Shown: positions 11,933-54,000, counted from the whole stretch's first letter. The stretch: DNA of 63,728 nucleotides, filler included, from Pseudomonadota bacterium (GCA_040387495.1; 5 parts of 4 records of this genome joined end to end with filler, not necessarily neighbours in it), one strand, 5' to 3'. A program made the numbers and translations. The notes: a model not told the origin generated them from the sequence alone.

Positions 11933-12032
11933 NNNNNNNNNNNNNNNNNNNNNNNNNNNNNNNNNNNNNNNNNNNNTTAATTAATTAANNNNNNNNNNNN
12001 NNNNNNNNNNNNNNNNNNNNNNNNNNNNNNNN
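11933..12032. other. Artificial contig linker
   Basis: N runs around TTAATTAATTAA, 100 bp. Confidence 0.99.
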
Positions 12033-17029: not shown

Positions 17030-17129
17030 NNNNNNNNNNNNNNNNNNNNNNNNNNNNNNNNNNNNNNNNNNNNTTAATTAATTAANNNNNNNNNNNNNNN
17101 NNNNNNNNNNNNNNNNNNNNNNNNNNNNN
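17030..17129. other. Artificial contig linker
   Basis: N runs around TTAATTAATTAA. Confidence 0.99.
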
Positions 17130-17736
17130 AGCCATTGCAGTGTTCCCATAGCCATATGCTCCTCACACAACAACACAAACTCTCTCTGCACCTCTATGCC
17201 GCTTGCTGCAAAAGCAACTTTACACCCTTGATTCTTATTCTTAAACTATCACCTTGCTTAATATATTTTGTGAACGTCCACATGCATGCTACAGCTTATC
17301 TCTTATAAACTGATTATAGAATTGAGTTTTCCACTAGTCCTATTTTTCCTATGGCTAAACCATAAAATCCACACATACATGGCCCACCACATTACAGATG
17401 AAGGAAACTAAGAGAGGTACTATCAACTCAATTAAAACGTGAACCACTATGTAGCGCTTTTCTCCTCAAATGATCAATGCATTCTCATCCCACTATACCA
17501 CATCATCAAGAGGAGGCTCATTAAGGGGTATAACTCCCCATTCAACTCCCTACTCAACTCCCCCTTTTATACACGTCTACGGAACACATGCGCCCAGCCA
17601 AGTATTACGGGGCGTTGCACCATGTTTAAACGAGCATTTGCAATTTCAAATTCCTCTTTCTAAAAATATATTACCTACCACTCATTTTTAAGTGGCATTT
17701 TCGCTTACTCTTTTGTATACTTTTAATTGTTAACGT

Positions 17737-19804: not shown

Positions 19805-20869
19805 TTACTTCATGGCATCAATAATGTAACCAGCCAATATAAAAATTGCAAATAGTGGCAATGCCCATTGACAATAACTAACAAGCGTTCTTAATATACT
19901 GTTTGAATAAACGGTAGTTACAATGTATTTCTCTAAAATACAGACGAAAAATAATATGGTTAATTGAAACATATAACCAATGCCAAATACTTTTAGAACC
20001 AAGCTGTCAACAACAGCGCTATCGGAATATTTTAAAGTGATCGTAAATTGCAATGTTATCAGTGCTAAAAGGGACGAAAGCACCACACTTATTTTTGCCA
20101 TAATATTTATATTGCTGACCCATAATAAAATAAGTGGAAATAGCATAATCATAAAAAATGGAAAGAAAATCATTGGCACATAAGTTGCCGAAGCACGTTC
20201 CGCCTTAACCATGAAACGTAAATTCTCATATAAATATCCATTCCAGCCTCGTAAAATTTTCATCTTTGTATGAAATCCATGTAAATACCATAAAGGAGTA
20301 CTTGCGCCAATGGTTATCCCTGAATCATATTCTTCTTCAACTTCATACACGATACGCATATCAGCCATTGTATTTTTTGTAGACTCAACATCAAGAACTA
20401 AAAGCTGCTCATCAAAAGGAAAAGCCTTTGTATCCAGCGGAGTTCCAAATTCACCTGTTATTGTTAAAATATATTCAACCTTGCCATCACTATAAATAAT
20501 GAGACCATGATGTTGTTTTTGCGGTGTTTTTAGTATATTTTTGATTTTTAAGTTTGGGTTCCAAATACTTTCTAATTTTTTGACTGCTTCTACGTCATCC
20601 AACATTATACGACTTACACCTTTTTCCTTTTTATCAAAGGCAAGATTTGGATCTTTCCATACTGTTTTCAACTGAATTATTCCGGAAAATCCCTCCAAAA
20701 GATTGCTAATGTCATCTAGTTTCAAAACCAAAAGCTCAACCTTTACAGGCACAGGAAATATAAAATCCTCCTTATTTTCAGCTTCCGATGAAAACAGTGC
20801 TGTCTGCGTTAGTAGAAACACTAAAAATAGAAAATATTTTTTAAAGCAAAACATCATTTTTAAACCCAT
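19805..20869 (-). CDS. Prokaryotic pentameric ligand-gated ion channel (GLIC/ELIC-like Pro-loop receptor)
   Basis: Signal peptide, WKDPNL, IWNPNL, DGKVEY, Pro-loop FPFDEQ, pre-M1 Arg (ER), four C-terminal TMs. Confidence 0.85.
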   Translation of the reverse strand: MGLKMMFCFKKYFLFLVFLLTQTALFSSEAENKEDFIFPVPVKVELLVLKLDDISNLLEGFSGIIQLKTVWKDPNLAFDKKEKGVSRIMLDDVEAVKKLESIWNPNLKIKNILKTPQKQHHGLIIYSDGKVEYILTITGEFGTPLDTKAFPFDEQLLVLDVESTKNTMADMRIVYEVEEEYDSGITIGASTPLWYLHGFHTKMKILRGWNGYLYENLRFMVKAERASATYVPMIFFPFFMIMLFPLILLWVSNINIMAKISVVLSSLLALITLQFTITLKYSDSAVVDSLVLKVFGIGYMFQLTILFFVCILEKYIVTTVYSNSILRTLVSYCQWALPLFAIFILAGYIIDAMK

Positions 20870-28073: not shown

Positions 28074-29132
28074 TCATGTGAGACTCTCCACATACTTCAA
28101 CAATTCATTATCATCCGCAGCGTCGCATTCAAAATCGGGCACATATGGCACATTGTCACCGCGAGGCCTGTTACGAAAGACTTTTATCGGATAGGAAAAT
28201 GTGCCCATTCCACTTGGCAGATCGACAGTACGTACTTCCATATATAGACGATCCGCTTTAGTCGTTTTACCGATCAACGTAATGGAATGTTCCATCATTT
28301 TGAGTGAATCAATAAAATCCAAAGCAGCACTTACATTCAGCGGCTGAATAATCACAAAGATTTTTGCCTTGACGCTATGTGCACGCACTATTTTAGTGGG
28401 ATATACAATCTCTGAAGACGCCGCATGATAATAAGGCTCGTGTTTAGTAATACTATCCTCAATACAATCAGCAACATGTCTCATCCAATCACTTTTGTAG
28501 CGCGCATACATTTCGCGCATATGTATTAGGTTTCCTGGGCTTGCACGCCAATCAACGGAAACATTTCGGTTAGCAATACGTCGCTGCTGACTTGCATAAC
28601 TTTCATCAAATAAATAATCCACAATTTGGTCACTATACTCTGAATTGCCGCCTTGATTGCCAAGCAAATCAAAGACAATTGCATCTTTATTTTTTAGATT
28701 TAGCAATTGCTGCAGAATATGCTCAAAATCCTTTTTTTGATCCACTTGAATGTCAAAAGTGGGTAATGTGATCCAGACAATTTTGGGGCTGATATGCTTG
28801 ATTGCAAATTTCTGGTTTTGTAATTTGCGTGGTGTATTTTTCTCTGCATCTTTCCAACTTACCCACAAGTGTGCATCATTGAAAGTCTTAGCAAATGTAG
28901 AAAGAATCAATTTTTTCTGGTTTGAGCCAGAATTATTGGCAATATTACTTCTTGCTTTTACATACGCTTTTTCAAGCTCGTCCTTAAACAACGGATCTTC
29001 GTGGTTATACATTCCTGGATGATTTTCTATGATCTGTTCGCGCATAAAATCAAGGTCTTCAAACGAAACGCGAGAAGATGTGCACGCTGACAATGCCAAA
29101 GCAATACATATGAGTTTATAAAGTCTACCCAT
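28074..29132 (-). CDS. S41 family peptidase, lipoprotein
   Basis: Lipobox LSAC, NHPG, FNDAHL, FDLLGNQGGNS, VSAALDF, IGKTT. Confidence 0.82.
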   Translation of the reverse strand: MGRLYKLICIALALSACTSSRVSFEDLDFMREQIIENHPGMYNHEDPLFKDELEKAYVKARSNIANNSGSNQKKLILSTFAKTFNDAHLWVSWKDAEKNTPRKLQNQKFAIKHISPKIVWITLPTFDIQVDQKKDFEHILQQLLNLKNKDAIVFDLLGNQGGNSEYSDQIVDYLFDESYASQQRRIANRNVSVDWRASPGNLIHMREMYARYKSDWMRHVADCIEDSITKHEPYYHAASSEIVYPTKIVRAHSVKAKIFVIIQPLNVSAALDFIDSLKMMEHSITLIGKTTKADRLYMEVRTVDLPSGMGTFSYPIKVFRNRPRGDNVPYVPDFECDAADDNELLKYVESLT

Positions 29133-29886
29133 CTTTTTTCCCGCCATTTAGCACCGCCACAACCAAATCAATAGCAAAGTAGAAATCCCCGTTTGCACTT
29201 TTCTCTTCCAAGTCTTGTCGCCACAAGAGAATATCTTCTTCCTTAAAATGGTCTTTTGCTACCGACAAAAGCATTTGAACCATCAGATAACCATAATTCC
29301 CAGGCATTAATTTTGTTTCAGTTGTTCTTATAGTTTTAATAGATGATGTATCATGAAAAAAACTTTGATTAATAAGACCGGGAATCTTTCTACCCATTTG
29401 CCCATCAGAGTGTTGTTGCCAAGCTTGTTTTGTGTCTGCAAAGTAATGAATTAAATCCCGCGTAAGCTGTACATATTTACTGTTAAAGATAGCTGAATCA
29501 AAATCGTGATGTGAAAGAATAAAAATTCCATTATCAGACAATAAATCTTGAAAGGCATTGATAAATTCAATCTTACTTTCTATGCATTCCAATACATTTT
29601 GACAAATGATTCTATCAAAACTCATTAATCCATTTAAATCTCTTGGGGTATCACAAAGCGCATATTGCACAACACCATTCGTAATTTCAGTATGAAATTT
29701 AGATTTAATGGTATCGATCATTTTCTCATTCGAATCAACGGCATAAATCAAATTTGGCTTGCTTTGATTCGATAATAAAAGTTCGATAAAATCACCCGTT
29801 CCGCAACCGTACTCCAGAATACGGGCATTATGCGTGTCACCTAACCTGGCTATAATTTCTTTTTTATGCGAAAGCACACGTGTCAT
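29125..29886 (-). CDS. Class I SAM-dependent methyltransferase
   Basis: ILEYGCGTG, AVDSN, FDRIICQNVLE, DFDS..DGQMGR. Confidence 0.88.
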   Translation of the reverse strand: MTRVLSHKKEIIARLGDTHNARILEYGCGTGDFIELLLSNQSKPNLIYAVDSNEKMIDTIKSKFHTEITNGVVQYALCDTPRDLNGLMSFDRIICQNVLECIESKIEFINAFQDLLSDNGIFILSHHDFDSAIFNSKYVQLTRDLIHYFADTKQAWQQHSDGQMGRKIPGLINQSFFHDTSSIKTIRTTETKLMPGNYGYLMVQMLLSVAKDHFKEEDILLWRQDLEEKSANGDFYFAIDLVVAVLNGGKKDG

Positions 29887-30371
29887 TTAACACCTCCAAC
29901 ATACCAACGCGTAGCGACCGACAACCCCACGCTTTCAAGAAAACCAATCTTCGCTTCATCATGATCTCCACAAGCAACAACCACTTGCACTGCCCCCTTT
30001 TTTTGTGATTCATGTATCAGCTGATCTAAAAGCACCGCTCCAATATCAGGCCAAAAAGCATCTTCTGCAACGCAGAAATCATCAATCATCAACGTCAATC
30101 CGCCGGGGCTTTATACTTCTGGTGCACGCATCAAGCGCCCTATAATAAAACCTACAATATGCGTATTTTCAGCAAGCAACACTATATGATCATCTACATT
30201 AAGCAAATGCATGAATCATTCAGCCTGACTATCATACGCATGTTCGGAACGTTTCCAGAATTGAGGCTGCGCCGTTTCATAAGCACGACGTTTTTGGTCA
30301 GACAAAGCAACCATAGCTGATACATCCGCTGCATTAACACACCTAATATTAGCCTTAGCAAATTTGTTCAT
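29883..30371 (-). pseudogene. GNAT acetyltransferase pseudogene with two in-frame stops
   Basis: MNKFAKANIRCVNAADV…QAE*FMH…PEV*SPGGLTLMIDDF; TGA at 30216-30218 and TAA at 30111-30113. Confidence 0.85.
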
Positions 30372-30681
30372 ATTCTTCCTTGCCGTATACATTACAATCC
30401 AATATATCGTGTAAAAAACGCAAGAACAACTCCACCCTTTCTATATTATATAAAATGGGCCTAGTTGACGTTTGGGAAGGTGTTTTAATATAAAATGATG
30501 AAATATATTTTTGGTTAATTTGGTCAGAATGCTACGCTTTCTTTTGTTTCGAACATAAAATGCCTTGGTTTATTGTACACTCACATTTTATTTATGCCGC
30601 GAACGAAGAAAAGCAACGTGCTCTTCAATAATTCAAACTAGCAATCAGTTGTCTGTGAGTGTTCATTTTTGCATTACAGCA

Positions 30682-33600
30682 CTAATAAACACTTGTTCCG
30701 GAATCAGATAATTTCTCATCATTCCCCACAAATGCTTCATATGATTGATCACCTAAAGAGTCTGTAGGACGGCTTCTCGCATCATTGTTCACATAACGTG
30801 CCAAATACCTTGATAGTGACGAATGTTCAGAATTTATTTCCACACTCCTCAAAAAAGATTTGTGTGATGAATAAACTGAAGAATTCGAACTGCCGTTATC
30901 AGGCTCAACATTCGCGTGGTTTGATATTGATGAATGTGCAGAATTTTTTTCGATATCCATCAAAAAGGATTTGTGCGATGAATAAACTGAAGAATTTGAA
31001 CTGCCGTTATCAGGCTCAGCATTCGCGTGGTTTGATATTGATGAATGCTCAGAATGGTTTTTTGTGCTTCTCGGTGAAGGATAGTTTGAAGAAGTCACAC
31101 TAGGGTTGCTGGCATCATTGCCTAAATAACGTGCAAAATACCTTGATATTGATGAACGCTCAGAACCACTTTCTGTAATTCTCGGTGAAGGACAGCTTGA
31201 AGAACTAGAACTATGGCTTTCAACATCATCATCCCTATCGTTTGATATGGAGGAATTTTCGGAATCGCTCTCTCTACTTTGTTGTGGGTCAGAATAGGTA
31301 ATCATTGTTATTTCTGGTGATTCAATAGGTAAAATGTTTCTTCTTGACTTAGCCTTGTTGTAAACACACGTCATCAGTGGCATTCCTACAAAAACAAAGG
31401 CAGCCAATGTCAATCCAGAAATAATAACATAATTCTTAACCGCTGAATTAGAGCTAGCTTTGTCCGATGCCGTTAAAGTAGGTTGTGTAGACGTAAATGA
31501 TGGTATTGTGATGCTAGAGGACGATGGGGCAAAAGTAGGTGATATCCTGACACGTTGATTTGGTGCGGGTGTCGTAACGGGGCGTTGGCTCGGTGTATAG
31601 GTGGGCATTGCTGAATGATAGCTTGGGACTTGAGCCGAACTGGGTGATGGCGTTGGAGAGAACGAAGAATGATATTTTGAATTGGCTGTTGGCATTACAG
31701 TTGTTGTTTCGGAAGGCTTTGATGAAGGATTCTGGCTCGGCTGACCTGCTGTCGTTGGCTGATTCGTCGACTGAAGAGTTGGTTGGAGCAAATGACACGC
31801 TGGGGGCACTAGTCGGGATGCTGGTTGGGTTCGATGAGGGTATTGTAACGGGGATAGCTGTTGGCTTGTGTGACTGGCCAAATGCCGTTGGCTGATCCGT
31901 TGACGGATGCACTGTCGGAGAAAAAGATGCGCTGGGTGAGCTTGTCTGGATTCTGGTTGGGCTTTTAAAGGGAAACGCTGTTGGAGTGTACGTTGGCATG
32001 GCCGATGGATGTGTATAAGCCACACCTGACGTGGAATAATTAGAGATGTCTTGTGCGGTGGACCAAACGTCAGATGGGCCTGCCGCAAGGGCTGTTCTAC
32101 GAACCAAAATAAAATCTAAACGGGCCTGCAAGCTAGGCAGAATATTAGTTTTTAACGTGAGCTCCGAAGGAAGGTTCTTTGGAAGAAACGTATCTGCATC
32201 TAGAGACATGATAACGGTCTGATTACCGATGTTAAATACCAGCTCCAGGTCATTTGTCATTGGTTGCGGCAAAAGAGAGTGACTAAAAATATTGTCTGAA
32301 TTCTTGCTACTAATCTGAATGGCATCATAGGGAGTACCTGCAGCTTCATCCATTTTAATGAGAATCAATGTGGATCTATTTGTTTGTAAACCTAAGCCTG
32401 TCGCATCTCCCATTGCATATAAAACATTATTCTGTATGAGCATCTTTTTGATCTGGCTATTTTTTCCACCTAGAAACGAATAAGCCCAAGAGCCAAAACA
32501 AGCAATCAGTGCTTTTGTATTTCCAGTATCTGTTTGAAGCAGAGTTCCGCCAAAAATAAGCCCGCCAAATCTTGGCTCAATCATTAATGCATTTGCTGTA
32601 TCCAGGAGATTTGTTGGCTTATCAAACATTATTAGTGAATAACTTGACGTGACCGCGCCATCTGTGCCCAGCCCAGCAAAGATTACTCTATTCTTGCTTG
32701 TGTAACCTAACACATACGTCATAAGCTGGTCGTTAAGCATAATTGAATCAACATCCGTGAATGCGGCATCGATCGGATATGTTTTTTCCCATAAGAGAGC
32801 ACCTGAAGTTTGATTGAAAGCTGCAGCCACTGGCAGGTTTAATACGTTGTTGAAACTTATCGCTGTGATTAGGTTACTATCTGGATTAAAATCGATCGCA
32901 GACAATGTATTGTGATGGGAAACCTTGCCCCATTTGAGTTTCTGGTGGTTAAAATCGATACATGTCAACGTGGCAGAGGGATCACTCTGATTGTTTGCTT
33001 GACCTGCCAAAATAACCTCATTACCCATTGCAGATATTGCATGCGTTGTATTCCATGGCAGTTGTTCTGCTGCAACCTGGTGCCCATCCCAATTGGCAAA
33101 ACGAAGGCATTGTTGCCCGCCACAGAGAATCGTTTCTCCGGTTGTGAGGACAGACGTGCTGGTTAAGCTTGACCAAGGTGTTAGGACAGACCAATTGCCT
33201 GGAAGGAAGGGCGCTAGGGTAGGTTCCAACGTAGGTAATGCGCTTGGAATTGGGCTGGGTAAATAAGTAGGTAAATAGCTGGGATTTGCAGATGGACGAT
33301 ACGTGGGTCGATGCGTATGGATGGTTGGCGATTGAGAAGGCTTAGCTGAAGGAAAGCTAATGGGTTGTGCGCTTGGAGCACTGTTTGGTTGATCCGTTGG
33401 TTGCCCAGAAGGTTGCCCAGAAGGTTGCCCAGAAGGTTGCCCGCTTGGCTGACTTGATGGCTGACTTGATGGCTGATCTGTGGGCTGACTTGATGGCTGC
33501 GCACTTGGAGCACTGTTTGGTTGATCCGTTGGTTGCTCCGTTGGTTGAGCGCTTGGCTGACTTGATGGCTGATCTGTGGGTTGATTTGAGGGCTGCGCAC

Positions 33601-36499
33601 TTGGGGCACTGTTTGGTTGCTCCGTTGGTTGAGCGCTTGGAATACTGCTTGGTTGATTAGAAGGCTGAGTGGTTGGCTGCGCACTTGGCTGCGCACTTGG
33701 CTGAGTGGTTGGCTGATCCGTTGGCTGAGTGGTTGGCTGATCTGTGGGTTGATTTGAGGGCTGCGCACTTGGGGCACTGTTTGGTTGCTCCGTTGGTTGA
33801 GCGCTTGGAATACTGCTTGGTTGATTAGAAGGCTGAGTGGTTGGCTGCGCACTTGGCTGCGCACTTGGCTGAGTGGTTGGCTGATCCGTTGGCTGAGTGG
33901 TTGGCTGATCCGTTGGCTGATCCGTTGGCTGATCCGTTGGTTGTTCGGAAGGCTGCACGCTTGGTTGCCCAGAAGGCTGTGCTGTTGGCTGCTCAGAAGG
34001 TTGTACACTAGGGTCATTGGTTGGCTGCACAGAAGGTTCCGATGATGGCTGATCTGTGGGCTGCCCCGAAGGCTGTACACTTGGGTTTCGGATCGGTTGT
34101 GCGCTTGGCTGACCTGACGGTTGTCCAGAAGGCTGCACACTTGGTTGCCCACTTGGAGTGCTGCTTGGCTGCTTCGTTGGCTGCTCTGATGGTTGTGCAC
34201 TTGGCTGATTAGTTGGTTGTGTTGAAGGCTGCGCACTTGGCTGAGTGGTCGGTTGTGCTGAGGGTTGCACACTTGGTTGCTCTGAAGGTTGCGTGCTGGG
34301 TTGTTTCGTTGGTTGCACTGATGGTTGCATTGATGGTTGCGCACTCGGTTTGCGGATAGGTTGGGCACTTGGCTGATTGGAGGGTTGCGCACTTGGCTGC
34401 TCTGATGGTTGATCTGACGGCTGCACACTTGGAACACTGTTTGGTTGATTAGAAGGCTGATTAGTTGGTTGCACTGAAGGCTGTGCACTTGGCTGAGTGG
34501 TCGGTTGTGCTGAGGGTTGCACACTTGGTTGCTCTGAAGGTTGTATAGTGGGTTGATTTGAAGGTTGTGTACTTGGCTGCGTTGAAGGTTGACCTGACGG
34601 TTGTGCACTTGGCTGGTTTGAGGGTTGATCCGTCGGTTGAACTGATGGCTGACTTGATGGTTGAACTGACGGTTGCTTACTTGGGATGCTGCTTGGCTGC
34701 TCCGTTGGTTGGACCGAAGGTTGTGATGTTGGTGAGTGCGTTATAAAGCCACTTGCCGCGCCGTAGATGACATAAGCTTTACCAGCATTGAAAGAGCCGC
34801 CGTATGGGGCGCCAATGAGCATGTCAGCAAAGCCATCCCCATTAACATCACCGGCGCTACTGACTGAATAACCTGCGCGATCACCAATGTTAGCACCTGC
34901 GATGGTAATGCCGCTGTCACCGAGATTGGCACAATTTATATTTGTTGAATTTTTGCGCCCATAAACCAGGTAAGCTTTACCAGGGTTGGAAGAATAGCCC
35001 GGAGCACCAATGAGCATATCCGCATAGCCATCCTTGTTAACATCACCCGCGCTACTAACTGAATAACCTAGTAGTTCGTCACCATTTCCTCCTGTAATGG
35101 TAATGCCTTTATTGCCCAAATTAGCTAAATCTACATTTGTTGAATTCTTGCCGCCGTAAATGAGATAGACGATTCCGGTTTTGTAATAGTACCAAGGAGC
35201 GCCAATAAGCATATCCGCCTTGCCATCCCCATTGACATCGCCGGCATTACTGACAGAACAACCTGCTAGATCACCACTATTAGCCCCCATGATAGTCATG
35301 CCACTACTTCCCAGGCTGGCTAAATTTATATTGACTAACGCACTGTTACCGAAGATAAGATAAACCATACCTGTATTGGAAGAGTAGCTAGGAGCACCAA
35401 TGAGTATATCAGCAAACCCATCCCCATTGACATCGCCGGCACCACTGACTGAATAACCTGTTTGATAGCCAGTCTCGGCACCCGTGATGGTAATTCCTCT
35501 GCCACCGAGGCTGGCCAAATTGATATTCCCTAAACTACTTCCGCCGTAAATAAGATAAGCTTTACCTGTATAGGAAGAATAGCCATGAGCACCAATAAGC
35601 ATATCAGCAAAACCATCACCGTTGACATCACCGGCACTACTGACTGAATAACCTGTTTGATCGCCACTATTGGCCCCCGTGATGGTAGTGATGCGACTTT
35701 CTAATGGATTGGCCAAATCTATATTTGTTGAATTCTTGCTGCCGTAGATGATATAGGCCATACCTGTGTATGAAGAGTAGCCAGGAGCACCAATGAGTAT
35801 ATCTGCAAAGCCATCCTTATTTACATCGCCGGCGCTACTGACTGAGTAACCTGCTCTATCGCCAATTCCAGCACCAGTGATGGTAGTGACGCGACTTTCC
35901 AAGGTATTGGCTAAATTTATGTTCGTGTTATTAGGGCCACCGTAGATGATATAGGCAATACCTGCATTGGAACCATCACCAGGAGCTCCAATGAGCATAT
36001 CCGCATAGCCATCCCCATTGACATCGCCAGCGCTACTGACAGAGTAAGCAGCATAATAACCAGTCCCGGCACCTGTGATGCTAATCCCCTCTGTCGTCAA
36101 ACTCCCTAAATTTAAGTTAGCCGCACATGATTTTTGCACATAGGTAGCAAGACATAGAAAACCAACAAAAAACTGAAAGAATTTCGAAAAAGGTTCAGTA
36201 TAATGAATAGTTTTCTTTTTGTTTGCCGCAACTGCTATTAGCTGTTCAGATGGAACTTCTACATGGCAAATGGATTCTTGAAAAGATGCACACTTTTCTT
36301 GATGCGGATAGGCATTTTTCATTTCAATGAAAGGAAGCGAGCCATTAAATACATTCGTATCATGATATGAATCCATTGCAACGGCTTGACGTATCGTCAT
36401 CACACAAAAACAAAACAGCACAATCGTGGAAATAATTTTGCGGCAGATAGATGTTTTAACAGGCGCACATTGATAATCATAATGTGTATGTAACATCAA
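30682..36499 (-). CDS. Giant FG-GAP (integrin-alpha repeat) surface protein with PSxQ/PTxQ stalk, TM and Ser-rich tail; frameshifted at ~31779-31786
   Basis: Seven GYSVSSAGDVNGDGFADMLIGAP-type repeats, >100 xxQP-type tetrapeptides; ORF 31514..36499 shifts into ORF 30682..32088, which carries the TM YVIISGLTLAAFVFVGMPLMTCVY. Confidence 0.8.
33370..34735 (-). repeat. 12-bp tandem coding repeat (PSxQ) including a 168-bp duplication
   Basis: GGTTG/GGCTG 12-nt periodicity; the block at 33661 recurs at 33829. Confidence 0.9.
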
Positions 36500-36864
36500 T
36501 ATGCTTTCCTGATAGGGTTAGATAATATATATGTGTACGATTTTTTATCTTTACAAGAGGAATTCTTAAATAAATTACTATTTTTTTTACGTTAGAAATA
36601 TTCTAATGCATCTAATTTAAAAATTCCACGACATGCCGTAGAGGCATTTTGGGGGTACGCCCTCGGTTACCTTGATGATGTGAGAGTAAACATTCGATTC
36701 GATTCTTCTTTTGGAATTGTTGTCTTTTTTAAATCTACCGGTGTTTATTTATATGCGTGGTTTTTATTACGCAAGAAAAAATATTTTGTATTGCACAGAA
36801 TTTACATAATATTAACAATTACTGATGTATTATACATTATGTTAATTTAAAGTTTTAAGTTCTT

Positions 36865-38460
36865 ATGTACCTATGGATAATTATATTTTTGCACCTTCTA
36901 TGTATGAATATCTGTAATGCGGCTATTAATACCAACACAATTGAACTCGACACAACCAACACAATTGAACCTGAATTATTTTTAATTGCAGATACTGTCA
37001 ATCTTAACGCTCCGGCGAATGGTGGTATCATAGATGCCCCTCCTGTTATACCGAGCACATTTCAGCTTGGGCCGAATCAAATGAACGATCCGCTAAATGC
37101 ACTATTGCAGATTCAGCTTGGCACCAACGACGATATGATCTATGAAAATTTGTGTTGGCATTATTATTTTGGATTTCATCATTTTGAAATTACGCACAAC
37201 GGCCTATCCCCAAAGCAAACAAAGCTGATCGATAAATTTTACTACAGAGTATCTGATATTTGCACGCTGCATACGCGCGATACAACCCTGGATGAAACAG
37301 GTGCAGATCTGTCGTCATATCAATGGGTGTTAAATCTTACCGATAGGCAGATATTATATCCCCATAAATCGATGGCTGAAATTATTGCTGATAATGCAGA
37401 TCATCGTTCAGTATCTTTTCCTAGCTGCTTATATAACGGTTTTGTGCCGGATGAACCTAAAAAAATATGGCCAAAAACAGATGAGCTGCTGGCATACAGA
37501 GGTGCCATTGGGTTTGACAATCCGGTGAGGTTAACCAACAGTGCAGCGACAGGCGACGGGGTGCACATTTCAACAGATGCACATATCGCGACGTATGCGA
37601 CCATGGAAGAGGCGGCTCCGTATGCAGAGGATATGATACAGGATCAGTTGCCCTTTATGGATGTTATGCGGGAGTCGATTCAACATGCTTTTGTACGTAG
37701 CGAAAAACCATGGGATCATGAATATGTTGAGCCAATTATTCAAAATGAAGATGAAAATATATTAGATCAGTTTATTCAACAGAATGGAATAAACGAGTGT
37801 ATTAGATCAGGATCAAATTATTTTTATGTGAATAATCAAAAGAGTGCTAGCTCAAGCATTGCGAAAGCACATGTAAGCCATGAAATAAATAGAATAATCA
37901 ATTTCCCCCCTCATTGGGTGTTTCATAGTTTAACGAGTGCTATACATGATAGATATCAGAAAGTTTTAAATAAAAATAAATTCAAATTTACATGCGTGCG
38001 AAATCCATATGTTAGGGCCTTATCGATGTACCAGCATCTGATACTTCCGCACAAATCTTCGTATAGAATTACTCTTAATTTAAATGCGAACACAATTATA
38101 ACTTTTAAGGAATTTCTTAATGCTGTAAAAAGGACCCCTATTAAAGAAACTGATCTTCATTTCCGTCCACAATGGTGCCTAACGATGACGCCTCTAGTGC
38201 AATACACTCACATTGTACATCTTGAAAATTTCACAAATGAATTCAGACCTGTTATGGATTATTTAGAATTACCGGGTGAGCCTAATGATTACACATGGGC
38301 TGATCATGCAACAGGGTCATCTGGGAAGCTTTCTGATTTTTATGATCAAGAATGCGTTGATTTGGCAAGAGAAGTGTACGAAAAAGACTTTGATTATTTT
38401 GGTTATGATAAAACACCTTACTTTTATTATCTGGAAAATAGTTCGTTGATAAATTTTTAA
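36865..38460 (+). CDS. Signal-peptide protein with C-terminal sulfotransferase (Sulfotransfer_2-like) domain
   Basis: QKSASSS (5'-PSB-like), FTCVRNPYVRALSMY (3'-PB), HFRPQ, HLENF, VYEKDFDYFGY. Confidence 0.82.
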   Translation: MYLWIIIFLHLLCMNICNAAINTNTIELDTTNTIEPELFLIADTVNLNAPANGGIIDAPPVIPSTFQLGPNQMNDPLNALLQIQLGTNDDMIYENLCWHYYFGFHHFEITHNGLSPKQTKLIDKFYYRVSDICTLHTRDTTLDETGADLSSYQWVLNLTDRQILYPHKSMAEIIADNADHRSVSFPSCLYNGFVPDEPKKIWPKTDELLAYRGAIGFDNPVRLTNSAATGDGVHISTDAHIATYATMEEAAPYAEDMIQDQLPFMDVMRESIQHAFVRSEKPWDHEYVEPIIQNEDENILDQFIQQNGINECIRSGSNYFYVNNQKSASSSIAKAHVSHEINRIINFPPHWVFHSLTSAIHDRYQKVLNKNKFKFTCVRNPYVRALSMYQHLILPHKSSYRITLNLNANTIITFKEFLNAVKRTPIKETDLHFRPQWCLTMTPLVQYTHIVHLENFTNEFRPVMDYLELPGEPNDYTWADHATGSSGKLSDFYDQECVDLAREVYEKDFDYFGYDKTPYFYYLENSSLINF

Positions 38461-39429: not shown

Positions 39430-42285
39430 TTATTTATTTGTATTAAATAAGTCTACTTTTGTTTCAGTCAGACTTTTATTGCCAAGAATATTGTTTCGGC
39501 CCCATGAATTCATATGATACCTTCTATAATATGAATTTTTTTCTGGTACAAACAACACGTCATCTTGTTCATTTGTTGAATCTAACAAATCAATCATTAA
39601 CCCAATTGATCCACAAAATAAGTGTTGTTGAAAATATGGATCATGTTTCCACTTATCTTTAAACGTTTTCGATATGCCTTCTGGGTTAAGTAACCTTCTC
39701 AAATATGATCCTGTTATCTTATTATGAGGAGGCATCGCCATAAAATTATGATCTATTGCACCAAAATCGTACATATGAAAGATATAATTATATGAATTAG
39801 CCCAAGTTGAAATGTCTTCGTTAATTTCAAATCCTAAATCCATGTAATAACCACCTATTGCATGAATTAATGACATTCTAAAAATATCGTTGGCATTAGT
39901 GTATCTATTATCAGACATCAGTCTTTCATATATTTCTTTTCCTACAAAGGTTCCAGGAAAATTTTCAACTTCATGTATCTCAAGAAAGGGACATTCTACC
40001 ATCAATCTTTCAATACTTAACGGAATTAGCTTTTTATTATTACACCAAAACATATGACGCCAAGATTTTTGGTGGACACGCATAATTTTCAATGAACTTA
40101 TGTATTTATCTAAAATATAATCTGGTATTTCATTTGGGTTTGTAGTTGATGTATGCCATGACCGAAGATGAAAAAATGGTATAGCTCGATTTCTGATAGC
40201 AACATTATTTTGAGCAATACTATGGCTTCGCATGATTAAGGCATGAAATTTTTCCTGTAAATTTAAAGCATTCAGCCCGCATTGATCATTTGCATAATCG
40301 AAAGAAATGATTCCTGCATCTATGGGTAAGTAATTTTGATCAATATTAATAAAATTTATATTTAATGGTCTTTTTTGTCTTTGTAATGTTTCTACAAAGT
40401 TTGCATCACAATGTTCTTGCAAATAGGGTTCAAGATTAACTTTGTGTATTAGTATACCAAGGTTTCTTTCGTCCGTAAATCCACAAGTACTTGCAACAAT
40501 TGGGTTGTCAACAATTAATTCATATGTTTGGTTAAACTTTTCAAAGTAATCTATCATCATAAAGTTAAAGAAATCTGTTTCGTATTCTTCCCCTCTGAAT
40601 ACAGTTGCGCCATTCCTTTTAATTCTGAATTTAATAAAATCATGGATCGGATGCTTTAAAAATCGTGCTTTGAACTGTATTTTTACAAATCCTTTTTCGG
40701 GCGATATAAGAGAAAATTTTGCCATTTCTTTATCAGTCCAAACGCCGCCTCTCTGACTAACCCAGTTTTCTGTCCATGAAAAACCTTCCAATAAGGCAAT
40801 AGGGCTTTTTAATTGTCTTGGGGTATAAAATTCTCCATAACCTAGATTTCTATAATTTGTTACTCGCGCTTCTTCGCTGTCACGACAAAAATCTGTCATA
40901 TTAAGAATTTTATTTAATTTAAGTTTTTCAAATAAATTATAAAAAGATTGGGTTGATACTCTGTAATTATTAGCTGTGTTAATTTTTGATAAAGCACTAT
41001 CCATATAGTGTGCATCTAATATAACACTATCAAAAGGAAGATTAAAACTTTCGATTTTAACAACATTTTTCCTATTTAATAAGAGAGCAGAATATAGCCA
41101 AAGATCATCTTCTGTTGGGGTCAATTCTTTGAAAAGTGTATAGTTTTGTACTATTTGTGCAAGAGAATTGGGGGGGAATAGCACCCCTGTTACCCCTTCA
41201 GGAACAAGAATGTTAGATGGGCCTAATTTTCTTTCATCTATAAAACCATTCCAACCAGTAAAGTTCCATTCGCAGCATGGGTACACAACGCCTGCGTGAT
41301 GTGCAATTTCTCTAACCTCTTGAGCGATCACACAATCTGGGTGTTCTCTATACCCTGCGATCAGATTTTTCAAGCGATCACTTGGATAAATTATGTCGTC
41401 ATCCACTGCAACCACAGCTGCTTCTGGGAATTTCTGAATTGCTGGAATTACTTTCAAGAAAACCTTCAAATTCTCTGGGCACCAATTAATCTCTAACCCA
41501 CGCTTCATTTGCTGCCTAATAAACCAAGGAACCACACGGCCAGGAAATTCTCCTTCGAACAAATTTAACACAACACGATCAGGCTTTTCTTCTTGTCTTA
41601 ATAATGATTCAATCGCAAGCCATGTTGTTTGCATACGCGCAGGGTAAGATGTTAGTGATATAATCACTTCTTCGTCCCGTTTAACATCCGCTACCCCTGA
41701 TGGCTGTGCGATGAAATCATCCAACCAATTCATGGCCCCAGAAGTCGGAAAATATTTTTGATACAAACGTGCTTGATAAGCAAAATCTTTTACCATCAAA
41801 AACGATAATGTTTCTGGTGACGATATGGTTAATTTAGCTGTATCAAAACTGGAGACAATTTCGCCCACTTCAAAGCCCCAATTCAAAAAACCCGCCTGAT
41901 CACTTGCAGACCACACATCCTTAACAAAGCTTGCCCCCTTAAAATTTACCACACGCTCGGCCCCAGGATCCAACGTTACTTGCTCCGTCAACTCAGCTTT
42001 GACCTCATACGAACCGCTCCGTGTATTAAAATACGTGATTTCACCAATAGTCTTACGTTCACCAGATGCTAACGTTAACGTTTGTTCACTCACAACATTA
42101 AATGTTGCAGGTGCCGCTGTAGAATTTCGAAGACGTAAATCATGTAGTTGAGCATGCTGTAGTGCCTCTAACAATGTAGATGCACTCTCAGCTCTTGATT
42201 CATTCAATGATGCCGACATGACAAACGATGACAGTGAAAAGATGCTGCTTAAAATGCCCGCACGGAAAAGGGTAGTTAAGTTCAT
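39430..42285 (-). CDS. Multidomain glycosyltransferase with signal peptide
   Basis: IISLTSYPAR…VDDDIIYP…DDLW GT-A domain; C-terminal GT32/GT44-like DIFRM..GGYYMD. Confidence 0.78.
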   Translation of the reverse strand: MNLTTLFRAGILSSIFSLSSFVMSASLNESRAESASTLLEALQHAQLHDLRLRNSTAAPATFNVVSEQTLTLASGERKTIGEITYFNTRSGSYEVKAELTEQVTLDPGAERVVNFKGASFVKDVWSASDQAGFLNWGFEVGEIVSSFDTAKLTISSPETLSFLMVKDFAYQARLYQKYFPTSGAMNWLDDFIAQPSGVADVKRDEEVIISLTSYPARMQTTWLAIESLLRQEEKPDRVVLNLFEGEFPGRVVPWFIRQQMKRGLEINWCPENLKVFLKVIPAIQKFPEAAVVAVDDDIIYPSDRLKNLIAGYREHPDCVIAQEVREIAHHAGVVYPCCEWNFTGWNGFIDERKLGPSNILVPEGVTGVLFPPNSLAQIVQNYTLFKELTPTEDDLWLYSALLLNRKNVVKIESFNLPFDSVILDAHYMDSALSKINTANNYRVSTQSFYNLFEKLKLNKILNMTDFCRDSEEARVTNYRNLGYGEFYTPRQLKSPIALLEGFSWTENWVSQRGGVWTDKEMAKFSLISPEKGFVKIQFKARFLKHPIHDFIKFRIKRNGATVFRGEEYETDFFNFMMIDYFEKFNQTYELIVDNPIVASTCGFTDERNLGILIHKVNLEPYLQEHCDANFVETLQRQKRPLNINFINIDQNYLPIDAGIISFDYANDQCGLNALNLQEKFHALIMRSHSIAQNNVAIRNRAIPFFHLRSWHTSTTNPNEIPDYILDKYISSLKIMRVHQKSWRHMFWCNNKKLIPLSIERLMVECPFLEIHEVENFPGTFVGKEIYERLMSDNRYTNANDIFRMSLIHAIGGYYMDLGFEINEDISTWANSYNYIFHMYDFGAIDHNFMAMPPHNKITGSYLRRLLNPEGISKTFKDKWKHDPYFQQHLFCGSIGLMIDLLDSTNEQDDVLFVPEKNSYYRRYHMNSWGRNNILGNKSLTETKVDLFNTNK

Positions 42286-42362
42286 AAAAAACTCCAATGA
42301 TGATTCACTCTGTTTTAATATCTGCCTGCGCATGGCCAGGCTTGCGTTAGTTAGTTCAATGA

Positions 42363-44049: not shown

Positions 44050-44149
44050 NNNNNNNNNNNNNNNNNNNNNNNNNNNNNNNNNNNNNNNNNNNNTTAATTA
44101 ATTAANNNNNNNNNNNNNNNNNNNNNNNNNNNNNNNNNNNNNNNNNNNN
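44050..44149. other. Artificial contig linker
   Basis: N runs around TTAATTAATTAA. Confidence 0.99.
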
Positions 44150-53900: not shown

Positions 53901-54000
53901 NNNNNNNNNNNNNNNNNNNNNNNNNNNNNNNNNNNNNNNNNNNNTTAATTAATTAANNNNNNNNNNNNNNNNNNNNNNNNNNNNNNNNNNNNNNNNNNNN
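53901..54000. other. Artificial contig linker
   Basis: N runs around TTAATTAATTAA. Confidence 0.99.

Follow-up and report, generated by a model that had tools for sequence, protein, structure and literature searches.

A giant FG-GAP protein of integrin α-like outline in an alphaproteobacterial genome, and the frame change that separates it from its membrane anchor

The integrin α subunits of animals and their unicellular relatives combine a seven-bladed FG-GAP β-propeller bearing calcium-type loops with a leg, one membrane helix, and a short cytoplasmic tail, and a GFFKR-type motif after the helix is among their traits. FG-GAP repeats also occur in giant bacterial adhesins that contain VCBS and RTX modules and share a modular repeat architecture; the RTX adhesins carry calcium-binding PF00353 nonapeptide repeats and a C-terminal signal for type I secretion. 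The gene described here lies at positions 30682–36499 on the minus strand of a 63,728-nucleotide stretch of DNA (the window) from a 1.66 Mb alphaproteobacterial genome (20 contigs, 99.9% complete). Its product resembles both groups in part, being integrin α-like in outline with a head of bacterial stock, and reads as a giant modular bacterial surface protein. The original prediction, made from the DNA alone, took it for a single type I membrane protein of approximately 1,940 residues, host-derived or host-mimicking. We consider it moderately probable that the gene encodes a giant, exported, stalked binding protein of bacterial origin, which belongs to a rare modular family, was acquired horizontally, and has been broken in this genome by a four-base duplication.

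Read with translation table 11, the 5,818-base span is not one open frame. Its length is not divisible by three, and it holds two overlapping open reading frames (ORFs) in different frames: ORF A (31514–36499, minus strand, 1661 codons) and ORF B (30682–32088, minus strand, 468 codons), which is in frame +1 relative to ORF A and meaningful only from about codon 104. Joining the frames across the break gives a product of approximately 1,936 residues. The single protein proposed at the outset does not exist as such, given that the membrane helix and tail are encoded only in ORF B; the proposed architecture is real but is spread over two frames, and the interruption of the gene had been missed. 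The features of the locus are as follows.

36494–36510, minus strand: probable start, with ATG at 36494–36496, one codon inside the listed TTG (36497–36499), and AGGAAAG upstream at 36504–36510
36377–36436, minus strand: first hydrophobic segment (ORF A residues 22–41, IISTIV...RQAVA), with an Ala-x-Ala site at its end
36122–36184, minus strand: second hydrophobic segment (residues 106–126), preceded by Lys, its terminal SCA abutting the first FG-GAP repeat
34745–36121, minus strand: head of seven FG-GAP repeats, a seven-bladed β-propeller by Pfam, loops, tandem period, and model
33248–34744, minus strand: first stalk, approximately 500 residues of P[ST]xQ tetrapeptides with 25% Pro, predicted to be disordered or extended
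32000–33247 (core approximately 32096–33199), minus strand: second β-propeller, a new sequence family of approximately 415 residues with an invariant Cys pair
31435–31999, minus strand: second Pro/Ser/Thr stalk, whose ORF A part extends to 31784 and whose ORF B part begins at 31779, colinear with the orthologues P0003 and G014
31779–31786, minus strand: frame-change site, a tandem CCAA CCAA (CCAACCAA)
31514–31778, minus strand: out-of-frame end of ORF A, approximately 87–89 residues unlike any orthologue, then a stop codon
31360–31434, minus strand: membrane helix (ORF B residues 219–243, hydropathy 2.22), followed by NKAKSRRN
30682–31359, minus strand: 225-residue tail (27% Ser, net charge −9) and its stop codon

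Most elements of the original prediction were recovered, namely the leader (start at the ATG at 36496, with the AGGAAAG box upstream), a second signal-like hydrophobic stretch (residues 110–126 of ORF A), the FG-GAP repeats, a β-rich domain (all-β in the model) followed by a second Pro/Ser/Thr stalk, and the lack of any autotransporter or RTX signal. The single membrane helix and the repetitive Ser-rich tail are likewise present, in the frame of ORF B and not that of ORF A.

The break was located by comparison with two unbroken orthologues, the 1518-residue protein P0003 and a gene of G014, a genome of the same order that carries the submitter label Holosporales. ORF A is orthologue-like up to '...SVSFAPT', and ORF B from 'TLQSTNQPT...'; across the site P0003 reads SFSPTMLPSTNEPT and the G014 gene SFSPTVLPSTNTPT. 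The out-of-frame stretch at 31514–31778 is matched by G014 only through stop codons, while ORF B stays open for 365 codons past the break and is colinear with the orthologues. This colinearity across the site is as expected from a four-base duplication in the window gene. Since the frame encoding anchor and tail is still open over those 365 codons, the break looks recent. The window copy is thus a broken family member, its helix and tail colinear with those of its relatives but shifted by +1 at 31779–31786. As it stands, the gene would encode at most 1,572 genuine residues followed by approximately 89 out-of-frame ones, and its product would be anchorless and tailless. Programmed +1 frameshifting was rejected because the orthologues show no shift at this site.

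The seven repeats of the head are evident from seven PF01839 stretches (E 9.7e-63, Pfam scan of ORF A), from seven DVN[GK]DGxxD loops between residues 159 and 551, and from a tandem period of 195 nucleotides (6.3 copies) in the DNA. A model built from 15 sequences is a seven-bladed propeller (predicted local distance difference test, pLDDT, 82.9; predicted template modeling score, pTM, 0.82). The best solved matches of the head are integrin α propellers (E 1e-20), at only 18–20% identity. Its sequence relatives are numerous, with 7,834 matches among 8,000 scored candidates; the best 120 are 35–51% identical over 68–99% of residues 100–645. All 24 relatives that carry an organism name among these 120 are bacterial, and they include Ignavibacteria, cyanobacteria, Aminobacter, and a Bathymodiolus symbiont. 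By sequence the head belongs to this large bacterial FG-GAP pool, in which giant modular adhesins are its closest relatives. Most head relatives contain RTX repeats (PF00353). In contrast, these repeats are unmatched in P0001 and P0002, and the window protein has a Sec-type leader, a C-terminal helix, and a long tail. A match to the XAC2610-related family of NCBIfam (61 bits, no separate stretch) falls on an FG-GAP loop and is uninformative. TcdB_toxin_midN was set aside (23.9 bits, below the cut-off of 24.8, no stretch), as were sub-threshold matches to DUF7057, SaoC, and TM_ErbB1 on P0024.

The PSxQ/PTxQ stalk that follows is longer than first proposed, covering approximately 500 residues (about 586–1084) and not 450. 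It matches the PT repeat family PF04886 in 10 stretches (E 8.6e-109; 355 bits against a cut-off of 26.2), consists at the DNA level of 12-, 24-, 36-, and 168-nucleotide tandem arrays, and was modeled at pLDDT of approximately 29. Its length is the least certain part of the locus; the independent assembly fragments between 33401 and 34514, and the listed read-assembly pieces leave parts of the stalk uncovered. Both stalks are of the PT (XPTX) repeat, mucin-like kind that forms long spacers between folded modules, although PF04886 groups sequences by composition and not by function.

Between the stalks lies the second propeller. A model from 11 sequences is all-β (pLDDT 82.2, pTM 0.83), and Foldseek returned only generic propellers at a template modeling score of approximately 0.5. 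A separate structure search identified the propeller of CylK, a cyanobacterial Friedel–Crafts alkylating enzyme, as the best match (PDB entry 7ron; Z 35.4, root-mean-square deviation 3.9 Å over 327 residues, 16% identity), approximately 6 Z units above a plateau of generic seven-bladed WD40/YncE-type propellers (Z 27–29.5) that also takes in an integrin propeller (Z 27.9). CylK is, however, a soluble enzyme with a separate N-terminal domain, and the likeness is one of fold, with no functional implication. The Cys pair C42 and C47 is shared without exception by the 11 aligned sequences, which would fit an exported domain. The ESM Atlas offered no usable lead (best cluster 0.90, with no name or recorded taxa, and recognition below the usual level).

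The resemblance to integrin α concerns layout. Propeller, calcium-type loops, leg, single helix, and tail are common to both, but no thigh or calf family was matched in the ORF A protein (Pfam, E up to 0.01), and the leg here is a disordered P[ST]xQ spacer plus the second propeller. Moreover, the helix is followed by NKAKSRRN and not by a GFFKR-type motif, the tail has 225 residues, and the helix lies in another frame.

The probable start is supported by P0003 and the G014 orthologue, both of which begin at the Met equivalent to the ATG of ORF A. The first hydrophobic segment (hydropathy 2.06 over 19 residues) is the most conserved N-terminal stretch, is kept in P0003, G014, and a further genome of the order, G051, and is probably a Sec signal peptide. 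An acidic, variable linker of approximately 65 residues separates it from the second segment, which is weaker, is conserved in the same three, and was modeled as a separate helix outside the propeller (pLDDT approximately 60). The position of this second segment is that of the sole signal peptide in the related proteins P0019, P0080, and P0065, directly before the first repeat; P0019 begins approximately 20 residues before its equivalent. A family-like leader also occurs on an unrelated protein of at least 541 residues with several hydrophobic segments (locus L051, positions 159–1781 of contig C22 in genome G052), which is 46% identical over residues 1–42 (...IVLVSFLSMTIGQSYA|M); leaders of this type may be export signals typical of the lineage.

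Full-length relatives are very rare. A word-indexed search of 5.8 billion clusters found one, P0003, which is 70% identical, and an exhaustive search of 1,835,955,588 representatives gave 10 matches to the second propeller, six of them with E ≤1e-10. Eight of the 10 (P0004–P0010 and P0012; E 1e-90 to 1e-6) align over most of the domain; P0011 and P0013 match short repeated stretches only and were not counted as members. Across 62 genomes from the order, four contained a match to the propeller part of the profile (the present genome, G000, together with G014, G051, and G052), and five more were matched at stalk positions only. None of the six same-genus genomes (75–98% complete) gave a match, nor, at E ≤1e-6, did any of 400 other sampled alphaproteobacterial genomes. 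A scan of species-representative genomes returned only contigs of G014 and G051, and metagenome-contig scans with the distant and the close group found no locus. The collection scan used a five-sequence alignment, as the 11-sequence one lacked a sufficiently conserved stretch. The family thus appears rare and modular, and is assignable so far only to genomes of this order. Titles and abstract openings of the literature on Holosporales and FG-GAP proteins, and on broader topics, contain no description of such a family.

What unites the family is its C-terminus. All 12 family proteins examined, cluster mates included, end in a Pro/Ser/Thr stalk, a helix (hydropathy 1.56–2.62), basic residues, and a tail of 97–311 residues with 10–26% Ser and 15–23% Asp plus Glu. 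The receptor-like type I design anticipated for the window protein is therefore borne out at the level of the family, including the unbroken G014 gene. Most tails carry a D-[ILV]-E motif 15–40 residues after the helix, as part of a conserved juxtamembrane pattern, K-[VI]-x-P ... D-[ILV]-E-[NS]. The motif reads DIEN in four clusters, DDIEK in P0010, LDVEA in P0003, LDIES in G014, and IDLER in P0006; in the window, where the tail DNA contains a 111-nucleotide tandem repeat at 30810–31055, the corresponding PIESP belongs to a PIESPEI stretch.

The heads, by comparison, vary. FG-GAP heads are present in the window protein, P0003, P0009, and P0024; P0019 has a Laminin_G_3 head, P0022 a repeat without a Pfam family, and G014 no folded head. 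The named relatives of the P0022 head are all bacterial, and are giant proteins of RTX, VCBS, or cadherin type. The propellers of G014 and P0003 are approximately 93% identical (alignment by eye), with 66% identity overall across 1,007 columns, yet the whole FG-GAP head that is present in P0003 is absent from the G014 gene (locus L029, contig C39, 649–2547). Assuming that contigs C39 and C4 carry the halves of one gene split by assembly, the head can apparently be lost or swapped quickly. In four further giant proteins (P0037, on a 1.55-Mb contig, P0059, P0065, and P0080), FG-GAP propellers and PSxQPT stalks are combined with a C-terminal membrane helix and an acidic tail, but the second propeller is missing; stalked FG-GAP proteins of a 'type I-like' build seem to form a wider class.

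Genomes G000 and G014 belong to different families of the order, and over 409 codons of the second propeller they differ by a proportion of synonymous differences (pS) of 0.45, a synonymous divergence (dS) of 0.68, and a nonsynonymous-to-synonymous ratio (dN/dS) of 0.26; the family has evolved under purifying selection. At that dS the propellers share 71% amino acid identity, as against dS 2.1 (44–46% identity) for PtsP and dS 2.9 (70% identity) for FabF in the same pair of genomes. Between the present genome and those of its own genus, PtsP and FabF give dS values of 1.06–1.46 at 80–93% identity. Given a propeller dS below that of the core genes of congeners, together with the absence of the family from those congeners, recent horizontal transfer, either between symbiont lineages or from a shared donor, best explains its distribution.

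In the reading that we favor, with moderate confidence as stated at the outset, the N-terminal Sec-type leader would direct export of an ectodomain consisting of the integrin-type FG-GAP propeller, a proline-rich spacer, the second propeller, and a second spacer, that is, two putative binding modules held apart, which we infer could bind host structures. In action the protein would be comparable to an adhesion receptor. One C-terminal helix would serve as anchor, leaving the Ser-rich acidic tail, which is disordered, on the cytoplasmic face of the membrane that holds the helix. The family would present a variable head on a constant assembly of stalk, propeller, anchor, and tail. The gene would have reached this lineage by horizontal transfer, long after its split from the other compared carrier, and a four-base tandem duplication in the second stalk would have shifted the frame in this genome.

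Several points weigh against this reading. An inner-membrane C-terminal anchor would leave an ectodomain of approximately 1,700 residues with long spacers in the periplasm, which is an awkward fit. The protein shows no evident route across the outer membrane: searches of Pfam and NCBIfam matched no autotransporter, RTX, or sorting-signal family in it. Unlike autotransporters, P0001, P0002, and P0003 lack a β-barrel translocator family in these databases and the C-terminus is a helix plus a disordered tail; sortase and exosortase signals place a motif, a helix, and a few basic residues at the extreme C-terminus, but no sorting domain of NCBIfam was matched and all 12 family members have 97–311 residues after the helix. 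Long acidic, Ser-rich tails are themselves unusual in bacterial membrane proteins. If both N-terminal hydrophobic segments were to span the membrane, the ectodomain would lie on the wrong, cytoplasmic side. Six of the eight full-length family clusters bear no taxonomic label. The data that support the break may all come from the genome's own sample, and the transfer argument rests on two core genes and a simple Nei–Gojobori estimate, with saturated values on the comparison side.

The awkward fit of the ectodomain is addressed by an alternative that we regard as unlikely, in which the product is released from the bacterium and lodges by its C-terminal helix in a host membrane, the tail acting in the host cytosol as a docking or sorting signal. 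To our eyes the tail resembles a target of kinases and adaptors of the host, an ectodomain of this length would exceed the periplasm, and the genome has genes for a secretin, a type VI sheath protein, and a TolC-like channel. Against these stand a Sec leader and a helix of hydropathy 2.2, which together predict arrest in the bacterial inner membrane, and the fact that helix and tail are out of frame in this genome. In addition, a search of the genome with PF03135 found no VirB4-type type IV system, and the protein carries no secretion signal of a known system. In its fullest form, which we would hold to be equally doubtful, symbionts would encode and exchange a receptor-type protein built for a eukaryotic membrane, with the helix in the host membrane, or with N- and C-terminal helices bridging bacterial and host membranes, and with the tail engaging the sorting or kinase machinery of the host. 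Were this true, these proteins would form a novel class of host-membrane receptors made by symbionts, with heads swapped to change ligand, and the broken copy would mark a lineage in which the anchor has only just been given up.

A frame change can also arise from an error of sequencing or assembly, in which case the gene would be intact in the living organism. The open, orthologue-colinear 365 codons of ORF B after the break are what such an error would leave, and a single run, possibly the source of the genome itself, extends over the site; the remaining runs (X2–X4) yielded small pieces only, none of them over the break. We nevertheless judge an error to be unlikely. A 15,656-base contig from another assembler (depth 12) covers 30600–33401 with zero differences and zero gaps, and variant calling with a cut-off of 10% of depth reported neither an alternative allele at the break nor an indel. 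Furthermore, the change is one of four bases in a non-homopolymer context. As the covering run may be the source sample, this excludes an assembler artefact but does not amount to independent biological confirmation.

Less probable still is an origin of the constant module in a type I membrane protein of a protist host, fused behind a bacterial leader. The type I layout with its Ser/Asp/Glu-rich tail in all 12 members is suggestive of such a source, as is the short D[ILV]E motif that most tails carry past the helix; motifs of this kind resemble eukaryotic di-acidic export signals of the endoplasmic reticulum, for example that in the tail of VSV-G. The six unlabeled clusters could be eukaryotic contigs, and the bacterium belongs to a group known as symbionts of protists. 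However, none of the second-propeller matches has a eukaryote label, both tested heads recombine with the pool of giant bacterial adhesins, among solved folds the second propeller comes closest to that of a cyanobacterial enzyme, and both the ribosome-binding site and the leader are bacterial. The base composition speaks against a host source as well. The GC content of the gene (0.47–0.54) exceeds that of its surroundings (0.31–0.43), but at third codon positions (GC3) the gene, at 0.28–0.40, is almost within the range of 15 neighboring ORFs (0.23–0.38), so the raised GC stems from amino acid composition. Given this, and the bacterial named relatives of both heads, the host derivation put forward in the original prediction is not supported.

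The gene's own contig comprises window positions 17130–44049 (26,920 bases). Paired N runs at 11933–12032, 17030–17129, 44050–44149, and 53901–54000 separate joined contigs, and linkage to the gene is shown within 17130–44049. Within it the gene is flanked by bacterial genes (a PtsP-type enzyme I, a PilC/GspF-type platform protein, an S41 peptidase, and a methyltransferase, with FabF further off). A chimeric contig or host contamination, for which the elevated GC of 0.47–0.54 would be the one argument, is very unlikely, because the excess is an amino acid effect with GC3 like that of the neighbors, these neighbors are bacterial, and the two ends of the gene lie in an independent assembly on long contigs of equal depth that both extend past the compared stretch (the 3′ end on the 15,656-base contig, the 5′ end, 34514–36600, on one of 9,511 bases at depth 13.1); orthologues occur, moreover, in three further genomes from the order.

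The surrounding gene order is not conserved at the G014 or G051 loci. The divergent upstream neighbor (36865–38460, plus strand, 531 residues) matches Sulfotransfer_2 (PF03567, E 2.6e-14, residues 318–515), a family of mostly eukaryotic carbohydrate sulfotransferases. It was found in none of five same-genus genomes, and sequence searches of solved structures returned no relative; that it modifies the Ser/Thr-rich stalk is pure conjecture. The S41 peptidase (28074–29147, minus strand), which has a faint similarity to the model of the chlamydial protease CPAF (E 3.5e-06, far below cut-off), occurs in one of the five, so that with the sulfotransferase the flanks are lineage-specific too. Directly downstream of the gene, three short ORFs of 58, 33, and 71 residues (29883–30392, minus strand) are arranged head to tail in different frames; they have no Pfam match and look like the remains of one decayed gene. 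A 967-residue ORF (39430–42333, minus strand) has a sub-threshold match to PF04488, the glycosyltransferase DXD sugar-binding region (20.5 bits against a cut-off of 23), and no match by sequence in NCBIfam or the PDB. A 354-residue protein (19805–20869, minus strand) matches ligand-gated ion channel families (TIGR00860, E 5e-24; NF033918, E 1e-11; both below cut-off) and resembles a pentameric channel, here in a small symbiont genome. Scans for promoters and terminators gave no excess over shuffled sequences. CtrA-type boxes (TTAA-N7-TTAA) number six in the window against 4.8 expected by chance, with none upstream of the gene.

To our knowledge, little is known of how Holosporales-type protist symbionts make contact with their hosts. 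The locus defines a rare family in which the propeller domain is new, the heads are exchangeable, and the receptor-like anchor and tail are unusual for Gram-negative bacteria. The family is a candidate for symbiont–host attachment or tethering, and the window copy would be a natural anchorless mutant. It also provides a test case for whether a 'eukaryote-like' design in a symbiont is taken over from the host or put together from bacterial parts, and here the evidence favors bacterial parts.

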